DNA of 64,000 nt from Escherichia coli (lineage in GTDB: Bacteria > Pseudomonadota > Gammaproteobacteria > Enterobacterales > Enterobacteriaceae). The DNA is taken from assembly GCF_044324875.1 (NCBI RefSeq), contig NZ_CP172185.1; one strand, given 5' to 3'. This document shows positions 51,049 through 63,648 of this stretch, piece after piece; the first letter of the stretch is position 1, and each line of letters starts with the position of its first letter. A program made the position numbers and the translations under genes. The notes under the pieces are model-generated. The model worked only from the letters and a program-made list of their open reading frames with translations. It did no database searches and was not told the origin of the DNA.

Positions 51049-51966
51049 ATGCCACTCTTAAAACTCTGGGCAGGTTCACTGGTTATGTTGGCAGCCGTGA
51101 GCCTGCCGCTACAGGCGGCTTCCCCCGTTAAGGTCGGTTCAAAAATTGATACCGAAGGCGCGTTGCTCGGCAACATCATCTTGCAGGTACTCGAAAGCCA
51201 CAGCGTACCGACGGTGAATAAAGTGCAACTCGGAACGACTCCTGTGGTGCGCGGGGCGATTACTTCCGGTGAACTGGATATCTATCCGGAATATACCGGC
51301 AATGGCGCGTTTTTCTTTAAAGATGAAAACGATGCGGCATGGAAAAATGCCGGGCAAGGCTACGAGAAAGTCAAAAAACTCGATGCAGAGCAAAACAAGT
51401 TAATCTGGCTGACGCCCGCGCCTGCAAATAACACCTGGACTATCGCCGTGCGTCAGGATGTGGCAGAGAAAAACAAACTCACTTCGCTTGCCGACCTGAG
51501 TCGTTATCTGAAAGAGGGCGGCGCCTTCAAACTGGCGGCCTCGGCAGAATTTATTGAACGCGCCGATGCGTTACCCGCGTTTGAAAAAGCCTATGGCTTT
51601 AAGCTCGGTCAGGATCAGTTGCTGTCACTGGCTGGTGGCGACACGGCGGTGACGATCAAAGCCGCTGCCCAGCAAACCTCTGGCGTTAATGCGGCGATGG
51701 CTTACGGCACTGACGGCCCGGTCGCGGCGCTGGGGCTGCAAACCTTAAGCGATCCGCAAGGCGTGCAACCTATCTACGCGCCTGCACCAGTGGTGCGTGA
51801 GTCGGTGTTGAAAGAGTATCCACAAATGGCACAGTGGCTACAGCCAGTCTTCGCCAGCCTCGATGAAAAAACATTGCAGCAACTGAATGCCAGCATTGCT
51901 GTGGAAGGACTGGATGCCAAAAAAGTGGCTGCCGACTACCTGAAACAAAAAGGGTGGACGAAGTAA
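51049..51966 (+). CDS. osmF: Glycine betaine-binding periplasmic protein
   Basis: 305 aa with signal peptide; first gene of a four-gene ABC operon. Confidence 0.88.
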   Translation: MPLLKLWAGSLVMLAAVSLPLQAASPVKVGSKIDTEGALLGNIILQVLESHSVPTVNKVQLGTTPVVRGAITSGELDIYPEYTGNGAFFFKDENDAAWKNAGQGYEKVKKLDAEQNKLIWLTPAPANNTWTIAVRQDVAEKNKLTSLADLSRYLKEGGAFKLAASAEFIERADALPAFEKAYGFKLGQDQLLSLAGGDTAVTIKAAAQQTSGVNAAMAYGTDGPVAALGLQTLSDPQGVQPIYAPAPVVRESVLKEYPQMAQWLQPVFASLDEKTLQQLNASIAVEGLDAKKVAADYLKQKGWTK

Positions 51967-51972
51967 TTTCCC

Positions 51973-53130
51973 GTGACTTATTTCCGTATTAATCCTGTTC
52001 TGGCGCTGCTGCTGTTGCTGACGGCAATCGCAGCGGCGCTGCCGTTTATCAGTTACGCGCCTAATCGTTTAGTTTCGGGTGAGGGGCGTCATCTCTGGCA
52101 GCTGTGGCCGCAAACGATCTGGATGCTGGTGGGCGTTGGTTGCGCCTGGATGACAGCCTGTTTTATTCCCGCTAAAAAAGGCAGCATTTTTGCACTCATT
52201 CTGGCGCAATTCGTCTTCGTATTGCTGGTGTGGGGAGCAGGAAAGGCGGCGACACAACTGGCACAAAATGGCAGTGCGCTGGCGCGTACCAGCCTCGGCA
52301 GTGGTTTCTGGCTGGCTGCGGCGCTGGCATTGCTGGCCTGTAGCGATGCCATCCGCCGAATCTCCACGCATCTGCTGTGGCGCTGGTTGTTGCATATGCA
52401 GATTGCCATTATTCCGCTGTGGTTGCTGTACTCCGGCACGCTTAACGATCTCTCGCTAATGAAAGAATACGCCAACCGTCAGGATGTGTTTGACGACGCG
52501 CTGGCACAACATCTGACGTTGCTGTTTGGTGCGGTGCTGCCTGCGTTAGTGATTGGTGTGCCGTTGGGCGTCTGGTGCTACTTTTCCACTGCGCGGCAGG
52601 GGGCGATTTTTTCGCTACTCAATGTCATTCAGACCGTGCCTTCGGTGGCGCTCTTTGGCCTGTTGATTGCGCCGCTTGCCGCGCTGGTTACGGCCTTTCC
52701 GTGGCTGGGTAAGCTCGGCATAGCAGGAACCGGAATGACACCCGCACTGATTGCGCTGGTGCTCTATGCCTTGCTGCCGCTGGTGCGCGGCGTGGTAGTC
52801 GGCTTGAACCAGATCCCGCGCGATGTGCTGGAGAGCGCCAGAGCGATGGGCATGAGCGGGGCGCAGCGATTCCTGCATGTTCAGTTACCGCTGGCGTTAC
52901 CGGTATTTCTGCGTAGCCTGCGGGTGGTGATGGTGCAAACCGTCGGCATGGCGGTGATTGCGGCGTTAATCGGCGCAGGCGGTTTTGGTGCGCTGGTTTT
53001 CCAGGGGCTGCTAAGCAGTGCCATTGATTTAGTGTTGCTGGGGGTGATCCCGGTAATTGTTCTGGCGGTGCTGATCGATGCGCTGTTCGATTTGCTTATC
53101 GCACTGCTGAAGGTGAAACGTAATGATTGA
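51973..53130 (+). CDS. yehY: ABC transporter permease
   Basis: 385 aa multi-TM. Confidence 0.88.
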
Positions 53131-54049
53131 ATTTAGCCATGTCAGCAAACTGTTCGGCGCACAAAAAGCCGTTAACGATCTCAATCTCAATTTTCAGGAA
53201 GGGAGTTTTTCGGTGCTGATTGGTACATCAGGCTCCGGCAAATCCACCACCCTGAAAATGATCAACCGCCTGGTGGAGCATGACAGCGGCGTGATCCGCT
53301 TTGCCGGAGAAGAAATTCGCTCGCTGCCAGTACTGGAGTTGCGCCGCCGGATGGGCTACGCCATTCAATCTATTGGCCTGTTCCCCCACTGGAGCGTGGC
53401 GCAAAACATCGCTACCGTGCCGCAATTACAAAAATGGTCGCGGGCGCGGATTGACGATCGTATCGACGAATTAATGGCGCTACTGGGGCTGGAGCCAAAT
53501 TTGCGTGAGCGTTATCCGCATCAGCTTTCTGGCGGTCAGCAGCAACGTGTGGGAGTGGCGCGCGCACTGGCTGCCGATCCGCAAGTCTTACTGATGGATG
53601 AACCTTTTGGCGCACTGGACCCGGTAACGCGCGGCGCGTTGCAACAAGAGATGACGCGCATTCACCGTTTGCTGGGGCGCACTATTGTGCTGGTCACTCA
53701 TGATATTGATGAGGCGCTACGGCTGGCAGAACATCTGGTATTGATGGATCACGGTGAAGTGGTGCAGCAGGGCAATCCGCTGACGATGCTGACTCGTCCG
53801 GCGAATGATTTTGTCCGCCAGTTTTTTGGGCATAGTGAACTGGGTGTCCGCCTGCTTTCGTTACGTAGCGTGGCGGATTACGTGCGTCGCGAAGAACGGG
53901 CAGAAGGTGAGGCGCTGGCAGAAGAGATGACGCTACGCGATGCGCTCTCCCTGTTTGTCGCGCGGAGATGTGAAGTGCTGCCGGTGGTGAACACGCAGGG
54001 CGAGCCTTGCGGCACGCTGCATTTTCAGGATCTGCTGGTGGAGGCGTAA
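53123..54049 (+). CDS. yehX: ABC transporter ATP-binding protein
   Basis: 308 aa, Walker [10 protein letters not shown], signature LSGGQQQR; overlaps yehY by 8 nt. Confidence 0.9.
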
Positions 54050-54053
54050 GCGT

Positions 54054-54785
54054 ATGAAGATGTTGCGCGATCCGCTGTTCTGGCTCATTGCTCTGTTTGT
54101 GGCGCTGATTTTCTGGCTGCCTTACAGCCAGCCGCTGTTTGCCGCCTTGTTCCCACAACTGCCACGACCCGTTTATCAGCAAGAAAGTTTTGCAGTTCTG
54201 GCACTGGCTCATTTCTGGCTGGTGGGAATTTCGAGTTTGTTTGCGGTGATCATTGGTACTGGTGCCGGAATTGCTGTCACTCGCCCTTGGGGCGCGGAAT
54301 TTCGCCCACTGGTGGAAACTATTGCCGCCGTTGGACAGACTTTTCCGCCCGTCGCGGTGCTGGCGATTGCCGTTCCGGTGATCGGCTTTGGTCTGCAACC
54401 CGCGATTATCGCCTTGATCCTTTACGGCGTGCTGCCCGTCCTGCAGGCAACACTTGCCGGGCTGGGAGCGATTGATGCCAGCGTGACAGAAGTTGCGAAA
54501 GGTATGGGAATGAGCCGTGGTCAGCGACTGCGTAAGGTCGAGCTACCGCTGGCGGCTCCGGTGATTCTGGCGGGCGTGCGAACTTCGGTGATTATCAACA
54601 TTGGTACGGCGACGATCGCCTCAACGGTAGGGGCCAGCACGCTGGGTACGCCGATCATCATCGGGCTTAGCGGATTTAATACCGCGTATGTGATCCAGGG
54701 GGCGTTACTGGTGGCACTGGCGGCGATCATTGCAGACCGCCTGTTTGAAAGGCTGGTGCAGGCGCTTAGCCAGCACGCAAAATAA
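54054..54785 (+). CDS. yehW: ABC transporter permease
   Basis: 243 aa multi-TM. Confidence 0.88.
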
Positions 54786-54873
54786 AGGTATAACCTGCGA
54801 GCATGACGCCACCAATTCCGCCTAACGCCATAAACAGGAACAGGGCGATGACCCCAATTTTAGCTATGCGCAT
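54766..54873 (-). CDS. yohO: Small membrane protein YohO (35 aa)
   Basis: Minus-strand [38 protein letters not shown]; 3' end overlaps yehW 3' end antisense; below ORF-track cutoff. Confidence 0.65.
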
Positions 54874-54932
54874 AATGCACTCCTTATGTTAACGAAAGGA
54901 TTGTACAGTAAAGCGCATTTGTTAACGAATCA

Positions 54933-55616
54933 TTAAATGCCGAGTGGGAAAATATCATGGCCTTGTTCCTGCCAACTGGTAAGTTGCTGCTGTTGGGCGG
55001 AGGTTCGATTTTCACCGCACCACACCAGCAATGTACGGCCTTCGAACAGTTCAGGGCGTAGTTGATTGAGCGAGTGGGCGAGGACATCAATGCGCCATCC
55101 TTGTTGACTGGCAATCCAGCCCTCCAGCCATAGACGGGTGGTATCGTGAATATTCCAGCCAACCACCAGCGCATCTTTACCCTGTTTTTTACGTGCCGAA
55201 GCCAGGCAAATGGCGATGTAGTTGATCAGTACGCCGTCAAGGATCGCCAGCAGCGCCTGGAGGGTCGGTTGTTGGCACTGAAGTCGTCGGCGCAGAGGAA
55301 TAAACAGATGCGTGGTGAGTGTCTGGGCAGGGTAATCCTGACCGCGCTCTTTGATCCACGTTCGCAGGCTATGCAGATTGCCGCTTTGCAGGTAAGTCAG
55401 TAATGTTTCTTGCTGATCGCGCCAGCCGTTCTGCACATCAACATTTTCATTACTGAGCAGCATTTTAACTTTGCTGACCTGCACGCCGTTGTCGATCCAG
55501 CGTTTGATCTCGCGGATCCGGTCAATATCGGCATCGTTGAACAGCCGATGGCCGCCGTCTGTCCGTTGCGGTTTCAGCAATCCGTAACGCCTCTGCCACG
55601 CGCGTAACGTGACAGG
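54933..55616 (-). pseudogene. mlrA: MerR-family regulator MlrA (YehV) lacking its 5' end, interrupted by prophage insertion
   Basis: Reading frame matches MlrA from ...PVTLRAWQRRYGLLKPQRTDGGHRLF to C-terminus FPLGI; upstream in frame the expected N-terminus (MALYTIGEVALLCDIN) is absent and a stop lies at 55650-55652; no ATG start. Confidence 0.8.
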
Positions 55617-55654
55617 GATTAAGGGTAAACTAACTGATTTTACAAGTTTTTATT

Positions 55655-56941
55655 TTACCCCACTTTCTTATGGGGCATACATGGGACACTTTCAGATAGT
55701 CTTTTGTTAAGGAGTTCTATCTGTTCGTGATTGTTGTCTTTCATCCATGCTCCGTAAACATTGAATACCATTTGTGCGTTTGTGTGGCCCATCTGGCTTG
55801 CGATAAAACTAGGATTAGCTCCAGCGGCAAGTGACCAGCATGCATAAGTATGCCTGGATTGGTACGATTTTCTGTGTCTCAGACCTGCGCGTTTTAAGAT
55901 ACTTGTCCATGACTCCCTGATGGAGTCAACCTTATAGTGCGGTCCGGAAAACTGCCGCTGTTTTATTACCTGAGGACTAAAAACAAAAGTGCATTTATGC
56001 ACAGTACTTCTCCCATATTCCCTCTGCTTTACCTCTACAGAATGTTGCTTTCCAAGCATGGTCATTTCCGCCTGACTTTTAAGAGCATCAATAGCTGGTT
56101 GAACCAGATGAATTGTCCTTCCGGTGCCAGCATCGGTTTTTGGTGGAGTGAATTCGCCAAGTTTTGTATAATTCCTACGGATGGTTATAGTCCTTGCTTT
56201 AAGGTCTATATCTTCCCATGCCAGCGATACCAACTCCCCGTGACGAATACCCGTGTATACAGCGAGAATCCACAGGTTTTTTGTTTGTTGATGACGGCAA
56301 GCCTCAATAAAACGAATAAATTCGTCACGGGTGAGAGGATCTGGTTTTACCTTGGACTTTTTTAAGGGAGCCAGACCGTTAAATGGGTTTCCTGAGGTAT
56401 AACCATTATCTGTTGCAAATTGAAACATTCCAGCTATGGTTGTCATATAGTAGTTTACCGTGACCACTGAGCGCCCTTTTATGGAAGAAGTCTTTCCATT
56501 AGAAAGCTTTTGGTAACCGGTCAACAAATCTCTCCTTACGAAAAGTAAATCCTCTTTTGTTATGGATGAAACCAGTTTTTTTTCACCTAACATTGGTAAC
56601 ATGTTTTTAATTACTGACTGGTAACGGTTAAGTGCATTCGCACAAATCTCAATTTTCTTAAGGTCCAACCATTTTTCCGAAAGTGCCTTAACGGTTATCT
56701 CTCTTTTTCCCAGACCAAAGTGTTTCAGGTTAGGGGAATTAGGGAACTGCGCGGCGTAGTCGAAACTCCCCATTCTGATTGCAAAACAAACGGAAGTGCG
56801 AAGTTCACCTGCGATCTTCCGGTTTTTGGCGGTGTCAGGAACACCGAGGTTTTCTCTGACACGTTTGCCATTATAGTGAAACCATATACGGAGTGATCCT
56901 CCATGGTTTTCAACGCCTGTCGGGTATGATACGTTACTCAT
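55655..56941 (-). CDS. int: Phage tyrosine integrase
   Basis: 428 aa; conserved boxes TGIRHGELVSL and HRKSYQSRHTYACW ... VYGAW; SD gggagg; 3' end faces the att junction. Confidence 0.88.
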   Translation of the reverse strand: MSNVSYPTGVENHGGSLRIWFHYNGKRVRENLGVPDTAKNRKIAGELRTSVCFAIRMGSFDYAAQFPNSPNLKHFGLGKREITVKALSEKWLDLKKIEICANALNRYQSVIKNMLPMLGEKKLVSSITKEDLLFVRRDLLTGYQKLSNGKTSSIKGRSVVTVNYYMTTIAGMFQFATDNGYTSGNPFNGLAPLKKSKVKPDPLTRDEFIRFIEACRHQQTKNLWILAVYTGIRHGELVSLAWEDIDLKARTITIRRNYTKLGEFTPPKTDAGTGRTIHLVQPAIDALKSQAEMTMLGKQHSVEVKQREYGRSTVHKCTFVFSPQVIKQRQFSGPHYKVDSIRESWTSILKRAGLRHRKSYQSRHTYACWSLAAGANPSFIASQMGHTNAQMVFNVYGAWMKDNNHEQIELLNKRLSESVPCMPHKKVG

Positions 56942-56974
56942 TAAACCTCCCAGACGTCCAGGAGCATTAACAGG

Positions 56975-57229
56975 TTAACCGGAACTTGCATTTTTGGCAC
57001 CTGGTTGTTTCTGGTTTTCGATCCATCGCATAATTTCTTCGATGTTGTACAGGCATTCACTGTAGTGCCCCGGATCACCTTCTACAGCGTAATGGCGGTA
57101 TTCTTTTCCCTGCATCCATGACTTTCTTCTTGCCCGCTCAATGGTGCCAGGCTTTAGCCCTGTTGATGCAATGAGGACTCTCTCCGTACACCATTTGCTG
57201 GGGGTTATCTGATAGATGATTGTCTGCAT
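56975..57229 (-). CDS. Putative excisionase / small DNA-binding protein
   Basis: 84 aa immediately upstream of int in the same operon, basic, SD gagg; function inferred from position only. Confidence 0.45.
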   Translation of the reverse strand: MQTIIYQITPSKWCTERVLIASTGLKPGTIERARRKSWMQGKEYRHYAVEGDPGHYSECLYNIEEIMRWIENQKQPGAKNASSG

Positions 57230-58670: not shown

Positions 58671-59009
58671 TTACATGTTCCCCATAACGGTATCGCTCAT
58701 GTCGTTAACCATGCTCTGCCAGATTTCTTTGCCGCTTTGCGTCAGCTCGTTTCCACGAACGCATTTGCTTAACAGCTGAATACCAACGGCTTCCCATTGG
58801 GGGTAATTTTCTTTGATAGCCTTCAGAGCATAACCATCGATTAAATCCCTGATACCTTTAACCCCACCGATGATGTTTACTCGTATGGATTGCCCATTGA
58901 CATTAATCATGAAATGATCTCCGTTGGTGGCGGATATGTGGTTGTGCAGTGCAGCCGCATACTGATTTGCCAGCGCATTGAGGCGGAAATTTTGTGTAAT
59001 GAGTGGCAT
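58671..59009 (-). CDS. Hypothetical phage protein (112 aa)
   Basis: Track ORF; TAATG overlap with the upstream ORF6N gene. Confidence 0.5.
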   Translation of the reverse strand: MPLITQNFRLNALANQYAAALHNHISATNGDHFMINVNGQSIRVNIIGGVKGIRDLIDGYALKAIKENYPQWEAVGIQLLSKCVRGNELTQSGKEIWQSMVNDMSDTVMGNM

Positions 59010-59755
59010 TATTTACCCTCCCAACCAATCACCTGAAACAGCCCCATTTTCGGGTGATACCAGCGGGTACCGCGTGGCTCTGCCTCTGACATCATCTGAT
59101 GAAATGCTTTCATGAACGGCTCAAGCTCCACGATAGCCCGGCGAGAAAGAAGACCATCTGGCGTCATAAATTCGTGCGTATCGGTTGGGATGCTGTAGGC
59201 ATTGACCAGATTGCGGCACTTGGCATCAGTCATTCCGCTTTTGGCGACCACCTGGCGATAACCGACATATCCGGCGCGCATATTTCCGCGTTTGATGTTC
59301 TCCACAGCTTTGGTGACCGTTTCGATCTTCTCTTCAACATGACTCAGGCGCTTCTGCTGGCGAACGGCATCGGCGGCCATTGCAGCGATCATCTCCATTT
59401 CCGTCAGCGGCGCGTGAGTTCGGAAATAGCTGTTAACCAGTTCGCGCTGAACCTGCCATGCAAGAGTATCGTTAAAAGGCTTCGTCAACATCAGGTAACC
59501 AGACTCGAAAAGAATGATCCCTTTGGCAGTTCGCGCGGCAAAGGCATCAGAAAGTGACTCCGTACGTATTACGTCCGCAGTCATTTCAAGAAAATCCACC
59601 CCTTCGATAAAGTGAGAACGGTTGCGGTTAAACGCAGCACGGGCGGTACCTTCCGGGCGCTGGTGGACGTCATCAATCATTGCAAATGTCACAACACGCT
59701 GACCGCGATATTCGATTACCGGAAACTGTTTGTTGTTGATGGTTACAGTATTCAT
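59009..59755 (-). CDS. ORF6N/KilA-N domain protein (antirepressor-like)
   Basis: Start at MNTVTINNKQFPVIEYRGQRVVTF..IDDVHQRPEGTA (SD ggag 7 nt upstream); N-terminal pattern typical of ORF6N/KilA-N DNA-binding domain. Confidence 0.6.
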   Translation of the reverse strand: MNTVTINNKQFPVIEYRGQRVVTFAMIDDVHQRPEGTARAAFNRNRSHFIEGVDFLEMTADVIRTESLSDAFAARTAKGIILFESGYLMLTKPFNDTLAWQVQRELVNSYFRTHAPLTEMEMIAAMAADAVRQQKRLSHVEEKIETVTKAVENIKRGNMRAGYVGYRQVVAKSGMTDAKCRNLVNAYSIPTDTHEFMTPDGLLSRRAIVELEPFMKAFHQMMSEAEPRGTRWYHPKMGLFQVIGWEGK

Positions 59756-59798
59756 TTTTATCTCCAGACAGCCCGGCGTGTAATACCGGGCATATGTA

Positions 59799-60626
59799 TT
59801 ACTTAACCTGAATAAATGGTGTGTTGGCACCGCTGGTCATGTATTGCGGCAGTGTACCGTTCCACTTGTTGATGGCTTCCAGCTCCATAACGTTTGGGTT
59901 CTGGCGCAGAGCTTCACCGCGTAAACGAATAGCATCGGCTTCGGCCTGGGCTTTTGTGCGAATCGCATCTGCCTGTCCGGCAGCTTCCGCGCGCAACATG
60001 TTGGCTTCCGCTTCGCGCTGTTTTACTTCCTGCTCGCGTTGCAGGGTTTTCTGGTTGGCCGTGACTTTGGCATTAATGCTGTCGATAACAGTAGGCGGGT
60101 ACTCCGGCTTACCCACATATGAGAGGCTCATTACCTGAATACCGATGGGCGTCATTTCTTCCTGAATGTCTTTAAGAGCTGCATCCAGCAGCTCAGACTT
60201 GCCGCCGTCGATAAATTTGTCGGTGGTCATTTTGCTGGCCAGTCGGTTGAGTGCGTCGGCTATCTTCTGGCGCAGGTCGGTGTCGGTAATGTCGTCCACG
60301 CCTTTGCGGTAGGTCTGAAAGACTGTGGTAACTTTGGATGGATCAACTTTGTAGGCCACGCCGATGTGATAGCCGATGGTTGTACCGTCACTCATCTGGA
60401 AACTGAATGGATCATCGTAGGTCTTCATCTGCTTAAAGGTCGGGAAGATGTAAACCTCAGTGTTCCATCCCGTCCAGTAGCGCCCAACACCGACCACTTC
60501 ACCGACGCCTTTATCGTCGCCCAGTTTGTTTACTTTGATGCCCACATTACCAGGCTCAACGCGATCGCAACCGACAAGGCCAATGGTCGGCAGAACAATG
60601 GCTAAAGCAAAAAGTAATTTTTTCAT
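59799..60626 (-). CDS. SPFH/band-7 (prohibitin/HflKC-like) lipoprotein
   Basis: 275 aa; signal peptide with lipobox LVGC; SPFH-type core and C-terminal coiled-coil QREQEVKQREAEANMLRAEAAGQADAIRTKAQAEADAIR. Confidence 0.7.
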   Translation of the reverse strand: MKKLLFALAIVLPTIGLVGCDRVEPGNVGIKVNKLGDDKGVGEVVGVGRYWTGWNTEVYIFPTFKQMKTYDDPFSFQMSDGTTIGYHIGVAYKVDPSKVTTVFQTYRKGVDDITDTDLRQKIADALNRLASKMTTDKFIDGGKSELLDAALKDIQEEMTPIGIQVMSLSYVGKPEYPPTVIDSINAKVTANQKTLQREQEVKQREAEANMLRAEAAGQADAIRTKAQAEADAIRLRGEALRQNPNVMELEAINKWNGTLPQYMTSGANTPFIQVK

Positions 60627-60811
60627 CTTTTATCCTTAGAAAAAGAAAGACCCTTATAAATGGCATAAATGCAGGGCGGGGTCAGACACGCCAGAGCAAA
60701 GCCAGAAATCACTGCTATCGTATCCTTCATGGATATAAGGAACGGAACGAGTAATCCGTAAATGCATGCGATAATTGCCAGTAAAATTACTATTGTGAAA
60801 TACAGTCTCAT
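60623..60811 (-). CDS. Small two-TM membrane protein coupled to the SPFH gene
   Basis: 62 aa MRLYFTIVILLAIIACIYGLLVPFLISMKDTIAVISGFALACL...; 4-nt start/stop overlap with the SPFH gene. Confidence 0.55.
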   Translation of the reverse strand: MRLYFTIVILLAIIACIYGLLVPFLISMKDTIAVISGFALACLTPPCIYAIYKGLSFSKDKR

Positions 60812-60987
60812 TGGTCTGTGGTATCCCGATATTTTTAACCGACTGACAGCGCAATAAAGAGAATAATGATTTCTGTTAGTGTCAGCACTGTGGCAAGGAT
60901 TAAAATCAGTTTTACTCTGTTTAATTCACGGTTGCTTTTCATATAAACGGTTAGTAAAAAACGGAAGAATTATTTTCTTCTTAATAT

Positions 60988-61569
60988 TTAATGTGTCACT
61001 GGCGCTTCTGGCATACCATGAGTATTCAGGTCGTGAATCATTTCATCCAGAAGGAGTTCAAGCCCTTCGCGCCCCATAGCAGAGAGAATGAAACCATTAT
61101 CAGGATCTGCGATGAGCATTTTTTGATAGAGAAACAGAACTCGCCCCATGCCTTCAGTTTCGCCATATTTTTCAATAAATCCCCATTCGACATGGTTTTG
61201 CAGGGCAATGCGAAGTGGTCCTGGGTATATACTTATGCAACCATGTTTCCCCTTGTAAATAACTGCGCGATCTGTCGTCCCGTTATCGTTAGGGATATCA
61301 ATAGTGCCGTTCTTGTCTTCCTCTTCACTGATAAACTTCATCACATACAGCCAGCGCCACTGAGCAACCTTCAGATCGACTGAAAATCTTCCCAGCAATC
61401 CGGCATCATCAGCTTCGGCAAGACATTGCATGATTCTTAAACCGTGCCAGTATGGATTATCGAATTCGCCATCATTAAGCCGCTGTACGGCCTGAATATA
61501 ATTAATGGTTGTATTACCAATTTTTATGCCATGTGGCGTTACTTCTGGTCGGAACTCTGAATGATTCAT
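60988..61569 (-). CDS. Hypothetical phage protein (193 aa from MNHSEF; track ORF extends to 61626)
   Basis: ATGA overlap with the upstream 67-aa gene if it starts at 61569. Confidence 0.5.
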   Translation of the reverse strand: MNHSEFRPEVTPHGIKIGNTTINYIQAVQRLNDGEFDNPYWHGLRIMQCLAEADDAGLLGRFSVDLKVAQWRWLYVMKFISEEEDKNGTIDIPNDNGTTDRAVIYKGKHGCISIYPGPLRIALQNHVEWGFIEKYGETEGMGRVLFLYQKMLIADPDNGFILSAMGREGLELLLDEMIHDLNTHGMPEAPVTH

Positions 61570-61769
61570 AATATTTGCTCCTTTGCTGGTGGAATAATCG
61601 TGTAGCCAGCTCTTTTTGCCATCCACAGAAATGTATCCATGCAGCCAACGAATTCATTATCCAGCAGATGTTTTGAGTAAATTACTTCACCATTTTCAAT
61701 GGTTAGCAACACTCTTACTTTTTTATGTGTTATGTTTTGTTGTTTTTCTTCCATTGACTTATCTCCCAT
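61566..61769 (-). CDS. Hypothetical phage protein (67 aa)
   Basis: Track ORF; alternative start MEEKQQ at 61754. Confidence 0.45.
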   Translation of the reverse strand: MGDKSMEEKQQNITHKKVRVLLTIENGEVIYSKHLLDNEFVGCMDTFLWMAKRAGYTIIPPAKEQIL

Positions 61770-62444: not shown

Positions 62445-62903
62445 TCACCATTGGTATTGGTTCTTCCGTAGAAGAGCTTCGCGAGATAAGGAGCAAACTT
62501 GTTGAGATGCGTCATGGTGTTGCTGCTCCTCACTTTTTGGTTGCTCCGGAGGAGTAACCTCGCCAGTTAACAGCCACATCGGATCACAGCCAAGAACATT
62601 AGCCAGAGGGATAATCTGGCTTGCCAGAGGCTCCCTCTTGCCACTTTCCCACTGGATGATAATTTCTTCATCGAGATTGAGCAGCCTGGCGAGTTCGGCG
62701 GTTGTTAAGCCGCAGGCTTCGCGTTGGGTGTCAATAGAGCGATATTTTTTGTTTCCAGAAGGTAACAGAACACGTTTTATCTGTTGGATTTTTTCTATTG
62801 CAACTTCAATGAGTATGTTGCGGTTTCTTTCTGATGCAGACTCCATGCTTTCATGAAGTAGTGATTCTGCTTGTTCGATAAGAATCAGTTGTAAAGAAGA
62901 CAT
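62445..62903 (-). CDS. HTH (XRE/Cro-type) domain protein immediately downstream of cI
   Basis: 152 aa; central segment LTTAELARLLNLDEEIIIQWESGKREPLASQIIPLANVLGCDPMWLLTG is a typical XRE helix-turn-helix; SD gagg. Confidence 0.6.
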   Translation of the reverse strand: MSSLQLILIEQAESLLHESMESASERNRNILIEVAIEKIQQIKRVLLPSGNKKYRSIDTQREACGLTTAELARLLNLDEEIIIQWESGKREPLASQIIPLANVLGCDPMWLLTGEVTPPEQPKSEEQQHHDASQQVCSLSREALLRKNQYQW

Positions 62904-62988: not shown

Positions 62989-63648
62989 TTAAATTTGCAT
63001 ACGCATCTCAACGACAACACCAAGAATTTCACAATCGCCATTGATAGGGATCAGTGGATAGCGTGGGTTTAGTGGTTTTAAGAAACATTGTCCTGCGTCT
63101 TCAATGTACTGTTTGAGGGTTGCTTCACCGGAATTTTTGAGTCTAGCGACAACATATTTTCCTGAAAAAACTTCTTTGTCAGGGTTTACAAGAATGTTCA
63201 TGCCTTCAAAGATTGAGAACTCCCCATTCTGTGACGTCATTGAGTCACCTTTTACCTCCAGCCAGAATCCGTTATCTCCTGCATATATATCGCTACCGAT
63301 CCAATCTTCTGGATAAGGTATGTAATCTTCGCAGTTCCAAGGGCCGGCGCTCACCCATGTTAATTTTGGGTATCTGTAACGCGTTGGAGAAGCTGGTTTG
63401 GGGTTTCGAACGTTTTGAATACTATCTGTAGGTGAAGGTTCGCTACCATCAAGGAGCCATTTAGGTGAGCATTTTAATGCATCTGCGATCCTGAATAGGT
63501 TTGACGATCTTGTGTCTTGTGAGTCTCCTAACTCTATTTTGCTGATTGTTACACGTGAGACACCCGTCAATTTTGCCAGGTCATCTTGTGACATGCCTAG
63601 CTGAACTCTACGCATTAACAATCTCTGTCCAAAACTATCGTGTTCCAT
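62989..63648 (-). CDS. cI: CI-type phage repressor (HTH plus LexA-like S24 peptidase domain)
   Basis: 219 aa; N-terminal HTH MSQDDLAKLTGVSRVTISKIELG; C-terminal domain with GDSM serine motif and downstream lysine. Confidence 0.8.
   Translation of the reverse strand: MEHDSFGQRLLMRRVQLGMSQDDLAKLTGVSRVTISKIELGDSQDTRSSNLFRIADALKCSPKWLLDGSEPSPTDSIQNVRNPKPASPTRYRYPKLTWVSAGPWNCEDYIPYPEDWIGSDIYAGDNGFWLEVKGDSMTSQNGEFSIFEGMNILVNPDKEVFSGKYVVARLKNSGEATLKQYIEDAGQCFLKPLNPRYPLIPINGDCEILGVVVEMRMQI

Follow-up and report, generated by a model that had tools for sequence, protein, structure and literature searches.

A widespread phage gene pair encoding an SPFH lipoprotein and a two-helix membrane partner, as carried by a phiP27-like prophage of Escherichia coli

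SPFH proteins of bacteria and their phages

In E. coli, the SPFH proteins HflK and HflC form a cage around the membrane protease FtsH, and in SPFH–NfeD operons (QmcA–YbbJ, stomatin–NfeD) an SPFH gene overlaps the gene of a small membrane protein and natural fusions of the two occur. The eukaryotic cage proteins (prohibitin, erlin, stomatin, flotillin and the vault shoulder domain) share the same protomer architecture; they are distant, with different membranes and anchors, and serve here solely by analogy, as evidence that full-length SPFH proteins can form rings or cages. A phage-borne SPFH gene and its small neighbor are the subject of this report. The pair lies on the minus strand of a 64,000-nucleotide stretch of E. 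coli DNA (contig NZ_CP172185.1; hereafter the window) and has already been catalogued, as phiP27 L05, as PHROG 200 and PHROG 1130 and as the RefSeq "SPFH domain-containing protein". From the other described pairs of PHROG 200 and PHROG 1130 genes (phiP27 L05, N4 gp19/gp20, P88 gp11/gp12) it shows no substantive difference, being of the same family and arrangement. What is new, as far as the searches reach, is the dedicated and often fused two-helix partner, the signature of the SPFH family and the breadth of the pair across virulent phages.

Literature searches on phage SPFH proteins turned up annotations and no functional work. The description of the pair as an uncharacterised two-gene membrane module, made earlier in a sequence-only reading of the window, is borne out. 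According to a 2026 paper on an N4-like phage, why a phage genome should encode an SPFH lipoprotein "remains unclear" (PMC13239085). Other viral SPFH proteins are numerous in BFVD, and no function has been assigned to any of them. In the literature, the sole prophage SPFH protein found with experiments is PM0222 (Pmorf0222) of Pasteurella multocida, an HflK/C-like protein of about 25–35 kDa from a lambda-like prophage, which is likened to the present family by description only and has been studied only as a virulence factor (PMC9872710).

The pair is one copy of a phage-specific two-gene module in the early-left block of a phiP27-like prophage. The explanation that we consider best overall, with confidence evenly balanced, is that the module encodes an early, lipid-anchored SPFH ring or cage that would act with its two-helix partner on the host envelope. 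Both minus-strand open reading frames (ORFs) named in the sequence-only reading are confirmed, a 62-amino-acid two-helix protein at 60811..60623 and a 275-amino-acid lipoprotein at 60626..59799. The features of the module are as follows.

59799..60811, minus strand: the gene pair (partner and SPFH lipoprotein)
60623..60811, minus strand: gene for the two-helix inner-membrane partner, 62 amino acids, PHROG 1130 family
60731..60745, minus strand: codons for P23-F-L-I-S27, the turn motif P-x-[LM]-[IV]-S, at the predicted periplasmic end of helix 1
60633..60637, minus strand: AAGGA, a putative Shine-Dalgarno-like sequence for the SPFH gene, 6 nucleotides upstream of its ATG and within the 3' end of the partner gene
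60623..60626, minus strand: ATGA, overlap of the partner stop and the SPFH start, read from the sequence
59799..60626, minus strand: gene for the SPFH/Band 7 lipoprotein, 275 amino acids, PHROG 200, the same gene as phiP27 L05
60567..60626, minus strand: signal peptide and lipobox (LVGC, Cys20; Asp21 at +2), read from the sequence
60003..60563, minus strand: Band_7/SPFH domain, residues 22–208 (Pfam PF01145, E=8e-31)
59901..60095, minus strand: continuous 65-residue helix, residues 178–242, from the AF2 secondary structure; equivalent of the SPFH cage wall helix
59847..59867, minus strand: signature [KR]-W-[DN]-G-x-L-P (K254–P260), before the extended C-terminal tail

A full-length SPFH protein with a predicted lipid anchor

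The SPFH protein matches phrog_200 with E=2e-115 and is 97.8% identical to phiP27 L05 (tblastn). Its N-terminus (MKKLLFALAIVLPTIGLVGC) reads as a signal peptide ending in the lipobox LVGC, where Cys20 is followed by Asp21, and of 109 diverse family members, 100 have the lipoprotein Cys. Lipoproteins of E. coli with Asp at position +2 are retained in the inner membrane (the +2 rule), and under this rule Asp21 would keep the window lipoprotein in the inner membrane.

The AF2 model, built with 109 diverse relatives, has a mean pLDDT of 93 and shows an SPFH alpha/beta core, the helix of residues 178–242 (about 97 Å long if straight), a short helix at residues 244–254 and an extended tail. The signature that precedes this tail is strongly conserved, with W255 and G257 present in all 109 sequences and P260 in 104 of them. 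Against the PDB, Foldseek aligned the whole protomer, wall helix included, over about 260–300 columns with probability 1.00; the top matches were HflK (7vhq_E, 3.9e-14), HflC, prohibitin-1/2 (PHB1/2), erlin-1/2, stomatin, flotillin, QmcA and the vault shoulder domain, and the full-length alignments to the HflK/C, prohibitin, erlin and stomatin protomers contain the wall helix. In a sequence-profile search of the PDB, the best match was prohibitin-1 (1.4e-10), followed by QmcA (2.3e-7) and HflK (2.5e-7). The protein thus has the properties of the SPFH superfamily (a Band_7 match above threshold, and a core with a long coiled-coil wall helix and a C-terminal cap segment), its N-terminal membrane anchor being a Cys of predicted lipidation in place of a transmembrane helix. 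It is a full-length SPFH protein, roughly equally distant from the known subfamilies. The lipoprotein with an SPFH core and a long coiled coil that the sequence-only reading described, and for which it proposed the Foldseek comparison, is therefore upheld.

The likeness to the HflK/HflC cage extends to the full-length protomer fold, the predicted periplasmic side, the long wall helix and the C-terminal cap segment. The differences are an identity of 16–18%, a predicted lipid anchor, a single SPFH gene instead of two, and the KW[DN]GxLP motif and dedicated two-helix partner, which belong to the window family. Orthology with HflK and HflC was rejected, as the NCBIfam models TIGR01933 and TIGR01932 gave 23.6 against a cut-off of 159.4 bits and 26 against 134.4 bits, and in place of a second, side-by-side SPFH paralogue the neighbors are the 62-amino-acid membrane protein and an ORF6N anti-repressor-like gene. 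A functional mimic of HflK/C is a separate proposal: a periplasmic ring would capture or shield FtsH or another membrane protease and so alter the turnover of CII-type regulators, membrane proteins or LpxC, with effects on lysogeny frequency or membrane-protein stability. The predicted topology, in which the SPFH domain stands in the periplasm at the inner membrane, is that of HflK/C; these two proteins lead the structural matches and are the sole, though weak, NCBIfam matches; the position of the pair in the early-left operon is equivalent to that of cIII, the FtsH inhibitor carried by the lambda early-left operon; and the near-universal presence of FtsH in bacteria fits a wide host range. 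However, we regard this mimicry as doubtful. The bit scores lie far under the equivalog cut-offs, the profile matches to prohibitin and QmcA equal or exceed that to HflK, and there is one SPFH gene and not a heteromeric pair. The window protein also lacks a transmembrane helix of the type that HflK uses beside FtsH, and relatives occur in haloarchaeal viruses, whose hosts are not known to have FtsH.

The arrangement of the pair resembles SPFH–NfeD operons, as the sequence-only reading had remarked, and this likeness stands as far as gene overlap and natural fusions are concerned. It does not extend to the partner, because NfeD proteins have a soluble OB-fold domain whereas the 62-amino-acid protein consists of two helices only. 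Identity with NfeD was rejected, since none of 26 partners matched PF01957 or any other Pfam family and hhalign against YbbJ gave a probability of 3%. QmcA, moreover, faces the cytoplasm, whereas the window SPFH protein is predicted to be exported.

Public annotations of the SPFH gene vary among "lipoprotein", "SPFH domain protein", the RefSeq name "SPFH domain-containing protein" and, erroneously, "serine protease". The last label is found on many records, among them those of Stx2 phages, RCS47, Ro157c2YLVW, Kosakonia and Erwinia phage Pastis. Pfam and NCBIfam profile searches found no protease domain in the SPFH protein, and the label appears to be a propagated annotation error. The sole protease-named match, to phrog_11227, is weak (E=4e-4) and falls over the coiled-coil region.

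The two-helix partner

The 62-amino-acid partner (MRLYFTIVILLAIIACIYGLLVPFLISMKDTIAVISGFALACLTPPCIYAIYKGLSFSKDKR) has two hydrophobic stretches, a short polar turn between them and a basic C-terminus. In an AF2 model of the concatenated pair it forms a helical hairpin (H2–26/H31–54) with a pLDDT of 80–87. It matches phrog_1130 with E=4.7e-23, and so do the partners of P88, N4, RCS47, GAP31, Hali and Piffle, with E-values across the tested partners from 7e-26 to 5e-5. A word-based homologue search with the 62-amino-acid protein returned close relatives only, and the distant partners were located as neighbors of SPFH genes. The tested partners have in common the motif Y-G-x-x-x-P-x-[LM]-[IV]-S-[AS]-x-[SD], which contains the turn. 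Across 26 aligned partners, free and fused, S27 never varies and P23 is more than 90% conserved, and both are near-invariant too in a 37-row paired alignment. A search of the PDB with the partner profile gave nothing beyond chance-level matches to membrane helices, and no Pfam family matched any of the 26 partners.

The size of the partner, its two-helix topology and its charged C-terminus are those of class II holins. One could thus propose that the pair sets the timing of lysis, the two-helix protein being holin- or antiholin-like and its triggering being governed by the SPFH scaffold; delayed lysis is indeed known from N4 and several other carriers (10.1101/2025.11.12.688109). This proposal is very improbable in our estimate, as the pair lies in no lysis cassette at the loci inspected, and N4 lysis and lysis inhibition map to gp60–63, the vRNAP gene and the terminal repeats, with gp19/gp20 unmentioned (10.1101/2025.11.12.688109). 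A class II holin or pinholin was likewise judged unsupported: the topology fits, but neither a lysis cassette at the inspected loci nor a holin Pfam match was found, the best holin match among the 26 partners being that of one partner at E=0.04.

The pair as a probable functional unit

The stop codon of the partner gene and the start codon of the SPFH gene overlap in ATGA, from which we infer that the two genes are translationally coupled. The 62-amino-acid ORF and the 4-nucleotide overlap are intact in 79 of 79 informative E. coli-type loci, which came from an IMG/VR scan of viral contigs that returned near-identical loci. The small ORF is considered real because it is intact in all of these loci, matches phrog_1130 and has a ratio of nonsynonymous to synonymous substitution rates (dN/dS) of 0.23; neither ORF of the pair is a chance ORF. 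The small one carries no annotation in phiP27 or RCS47.

Two IMG/VR scans with distant queries gave 75 further loci. The partner was scored automatically in 63 of them, and 58 of these 63 scored Pseudomonas-type loci have the 4-nucleotide overlap. On inspection, 10 of the 12 unscored loci proved to have the partner (eight near-identical loci with a P-F-S-I-S variant of the motif, together with L152 and L161). In one of the other two the partner is frameshifted, and the last encodes a remote SPFH protein (27% identity) without a partner. The pair is also present in all four metagenomic representatives for which DNA was retrieved, where the SPFH proteins are 34–54% identical to that of the window. 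Among named phages, the pair is gp11/gp12 in the P2-like phage P88, is present in the P1-like phage-plasmid RCS47 with the small ORF unannotated, and is gp19/gp20 in the strictly virulent N4, where the genes overlap by 8 nucleotides and gp20 is 64% identical to the window SPFH protein. Pseudomonas phage Hali and the N4-like Stenotrophomonas phage Piffle carry it as well, and in the rV5-like Cronobacter phage GAP31 the two genes are separated by one small gene.

In about 19 of the 150 top representatives at 50% identity, the two proteins are fused into one of 320–390 amino acids whose N-terminal extension is the partner with its motif, followed by a charged linker, a lipobox-bearing hydrophobic segment and the SPFH protein. 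The same fusion is found in P0178, a P1-type variant from E. coli, where it arose by the loss of a few nucleotides. Fusion of the genes, in some 20 lineages, is the strongest evidence, as judged from the sequences, that the two products would work as a functional unit. The internal lipobox is retained in, for example, P0178 (347 amino acids), P0031, P0035, P0038 and P0048; lipoprotein signal peptidase cutting there would split the fusion again after translation, and the lipobox would then be an unusual, internal lipoprotein signal. The fusions do not prove an inner-membrane location, because this internal lipobox might still be processed.

Distribution and exchange among phages

Homologues of the SPFH protein are numerous. 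Against 1.84 billion representatives, phmmer returned 3066 clusters at E<1e-3, of which 230 reach E<1e-30; almost all are full-length (270–300 amino acids). A tblastn search of 50,697 phage genomes found relatives in 433 phage records, mostly of virulent types. Among the carriers are N4-like phages that infect Escherichia, Klebsiella, Erwinia, Enterobacter, Xanthomonas and Stenotrophomonas. Large myoviruses (rV5-like and related ones), LUZ24-like and FelixO1-like phages, temperate phages of Burkholderia, phiCbK-like phages of Caulobacter, Lak megaphages and tailed viruses of haloarchaea are also on the list. All contexts inspected are phage DNA, in most cases with genes of replication, recombination or other early functions nearby. 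In Burkholderia phage phi644-2 (L098, 1201–2400), the SPFH ORF reads into integrase-core/transposase-like sequence (via PF00665), so that an insertion element appears to have interrupted the gene or to be joined to it. Of 5426 complete E. coli genomes, 534 (about 10%) have the gene, and its locations number 418 on chromosomes and 198 on plasmids.

Lambdoid, P2-like and P1-like elements of E. coli encode mature SPFH proteins that are 92–93% identical, whereas their partners are 20–29% identical and their signal peptides differ as well. The DNA of these copies is 86–91% identical over window positions 59832–60578; the block of similarity starts right after the signal-peptide codons and stops just before the last 10 codons or so. 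Comparison with P88, P1-like elements and RCS47 indicates that the partner gene, the signal peptide and the extreme C-terminus have been swapped as separate blocks. Among the phiP27-type alleles, the SPFH gene has a dN/dS of 0.026 and the partner gene one of 0.23. The SPFH scaffold is thus very strongly constrained and is exchanged between phage types, while the partner keeps little beyond its topology and turn motif.

In the window, the flanks of the pair are mosaic: on one side, phiP27 has a different gene, and on the other, E. coli LH50-c does. The GC content is 51–55% in the SPFH gene against 37–47% in the flanks. The pair behaves as an accessory cassette. Of the accessory membrane role that the sequence-only reading proposed, the accessory character is thus retained and the restriction to prophages is not. 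A search for the pair elsewhere, which that reading had also called for (in other prophages and defence islands), found it so widely conserved as to come close to the conserved structural or housekeeping gene that had been named as speaking against an uncharacterised system, yet the pair is accessory rather than structural.

The sequence-only reading had further placed the pair at a prophage moron position and suggested superinfection exclusion or abortive infection. A defence system of the prophage, expressed in the lysogen, could act in either way, and in the abortive version the partner would be a pore-forming effector restrained by the SPFH cage. Several observations are in keeping with such a system: the pair resides on prophages and P1-like plasmids in about 10% of complete E. 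coli genomes and has mosaic flanks; the PHROG category of the partner is "moron, auxiliary metabolic gene and host takeover"; the partner is small, with two helices and a basic C-terminus like class II holins, and diverges fast; and the HflK/C-like prophage protein of Pasteurella is made in ordinary lysogen cultures (PMC9872710). However, PADLOC-DB v2 gave zero matches for both proteins and both neighboring genes, no link of SPFH proteins to phage defence was found in the literature searched, and no Pfam holin family matches, the best of the 26 partners reaching only the E-value given above. In the window, the pair has the orientation of the early operon, and the scan detected no promoter or terminator of its own. 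Abortive infection is unlikely in particular, as strictly virulent lineages also keep the pair and would have little use for a suicide system. Prophage-only defence is unsupported because the SPFH protein matches 433 mostly virulent phage records and lies in early gene blocks, as the same pair does in the virulent phages N4, Piffle and GAP31. We therefore consider lysogen-expressed defence improbable, while superinfection exclusion as a general function of early infection is possible. Identity with a known defence system was rejected, as neither protein matched a PADLOC-DB v2 model.

The Pasteurella protein also suggests a role in lysogenic conversion, in which the lipoprotein, at the cell surface or in vesicles, would stimulate TLR2 or promote virulence in the animal host in the manner of Pmorf0222. 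That 25–35 kDa, HflK/C-like protein of a lambda-like prophage is found in outer-membrane vesicles, and its deletion attenuates virulence in mice (PMC9872710). The window gene is, in turn, common in prophages of pathogenic E. coli, Stx2 phages included. Nevertheless, such a role is hardly credible for the family: the likeness of PM0222 to PHROG 200 is one of description, Asp at +2 predicts retention in the inner membrane, and the family occurs mainly in virulent phages of soil, plant and water bacteria, where an effect on an animal host cannot be the selected function.

A proposed role early in infection

The early ring or cage that we favor would be assembled and placed as follows. The SPFH protein would be lipidated and then held in the inner membrane by Asp at +2, with its SPFH domain in the periplasm as in HflK/C. 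It would oligomerise into a ring or cage standing on the membrane, as all solved full-length SPFH proteins do, and the wall helix of about 97 Å would reach far into the periplasm; this assembly is proposed by analogy with the solved SPFH complexes, the model here being that of a single protomer. The partner has basic residues at both termini, which would lie in the cytoplasm, and its conserved turn would reach the periplasmic surface; it would sit beneath the ring or in its rim as a membrane-embedded anchor or client, so that a patch of inner membrane would be fenced off. The strongly conserved SPFH part would serve as a general scaffold, and specificity or anchoring would come from the fast-diverging partner. 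For this structural model of ring and partner, our confidence is even or slightly better.

The module would be made early in lytic growth, since it lies in early gene blocks and on the early strand in lambdoid, P2-like, P1-like and N4-type genomes. As the pair is retained in many strictly virulent lineages, its selected function must serve lytic infection. The phenotype that we propose, tentatively and with less than even confidence, is that the module conditions the inner membrane of the infected cell, keeping it sealed and closed to the DNA of later phages (superinfection exclusion or membrane protection). Such a phenotype would serve virulent and temperate phages equally. Among the phenotypes considered it is ranked as most likely, and modulation of FtsH second. 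Known exclusion proteins such as T4 Imm and Sp, HK97 gp15, T5 Llp and phi80 Cor are small, early or prophage-expressed proteins that are located in the inner membrane, anchored to it in the periplasm, or lipoproteins. They offer a functional analogy only, with no sequence or fold relationship known here, and are narrow in distribution, whereas the window pair spans many phage families. In the virulent Salmonella phage PhiSH19 (Vi01-like), a 263-amino-acid SPFH/Band 7 gene adjoins a gene annotated "superinfection exclusion protein" (PMC3220722 gene table). This neighborhood is a weak, guilt-by-association lead for exclusion.

Several observations weigh against the proposed ring at the inner membrane or against its phenotype. 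The residue at +2 varies across the family (T 22, S 17, G 12, D 11, E 7), so that some members could go to the outer membrane and localisation may differ between hosts; the possibly related Pasteurella prophage protein is located in outer-membrane vesicles (PMC9872710). LUZ24-like Pseudomonas phage SA22 and Erwinia phage phiEa21-4 carry the SPFH gene without a recognisable upstream partner, and the SPFH protein can thus apparently work alone. The spread of the family over host phyla is more easily reconciled with a generic host target than with a competitor phage, which makes exclusion weaker relative to membrane maintenance or protease control. Lastly, scans for consensus promoters and terminators around the pair gave no signal above shuffled expectation (promoter-like sites were fewer than in shuffles, and no minus-strand terminator follows the SPFH gene), and expression of the pair in the lysogen cannot be judged from them.

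A more far-reaching alternative holds that the module is a hitherto overlooked, near-universal phage device, in which an SPFH nanocage, lipid-anchored in the periplasm, would join with an interchangeable two-helix subunit that confers specificity and cage a defined machine of the host inner membrane, such as FtsH or a DNA-entry channel. Although we consider it unlikely, such a nanocage would control superinfection, membrane integrity or the lysis–lysogeny decision, and it would provide both the first function for any viral SPFH protein and a minimal system for SPFH client selection. What a viral SPFH cage encloses, and why, is directly testable with the present carriers: the family is small, predicted to be homo-oligomeric, exported and lipid-anchored; its dedicated partner of 60–80 amino acids has repeatedly been fused to it in nature; and the module occurs in genetically tractable phages (N4, P1-like, P2-like and lambdoid) and in about a tenth of complete E. 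coli genomes. At present the SPFH gene is routinely mis-annotated as a serine protease, and the partner gene often has no annotation.

The prophage around the pair

The far end of the window lies inside a prophage inserted beside the osmF-yehYXW-mlrA region. At the prophage junction (window 51049–57229), the neighbors are osmF-yehY-yehX-yehW and an ORF at the position of mlrA (54933..55580, minus strand), and E. coli LH50-c shares this junction. Stx prophages are known to insert at mlrA (yehV). The closest phage match is the Stx2e phage phiP27, in which the SPFH gene is L05 and the small gene has no annotation. The other features of the prophage within the window are as follows.

55655..56941, minus strand: integrase
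56975..57229, minus strand: excisionase
59009..59830, minus strand: ORF6N/KilA-N anti-repressor-like gene (phrog_1726)
60812..60987, listed with the minus-strand features: AT-rich spacer, 176 base pairs
60835..60942, minus strand: tentative, unannotated 35-amino-acid single-helix ORF, 23 nucleotides upstream of the partner gene in the AT-rich spacer
60988..61626, minus strand: 212-amino-acid protein, function not assigned (phrog_1515)
62445..62903, minus strand: helix-turn-helix protein
62989..63648, minus strand: LexA/CI-type repressor

The pair is assigned to the early-left operon because the genes from the repressor to the integrase all share one direction. Downstream of the pair, the likely start of the next gene is Met26 of its 273-amino-acid ORF, according to the annotation of RefSeq homologues. 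Between the SPFH stop and this start lies an inverted repeat, GCCCGG-N9-CCGGGC (window 59756–59798, minus strand), which is not a typical intrinsic terminator because no T-tract follows the hairpin. Upstream, the 35-amino-acid ORF of the spacer (MKSNRELNRVKLILILATVLTLTEIIILFIALSVG) gave no PHROG match. phiP27 has it, as do about 30 of 79 related loci, with conservative substitutions only, and it may belong to the module as a third gene or be a small membrane gene in its own right.

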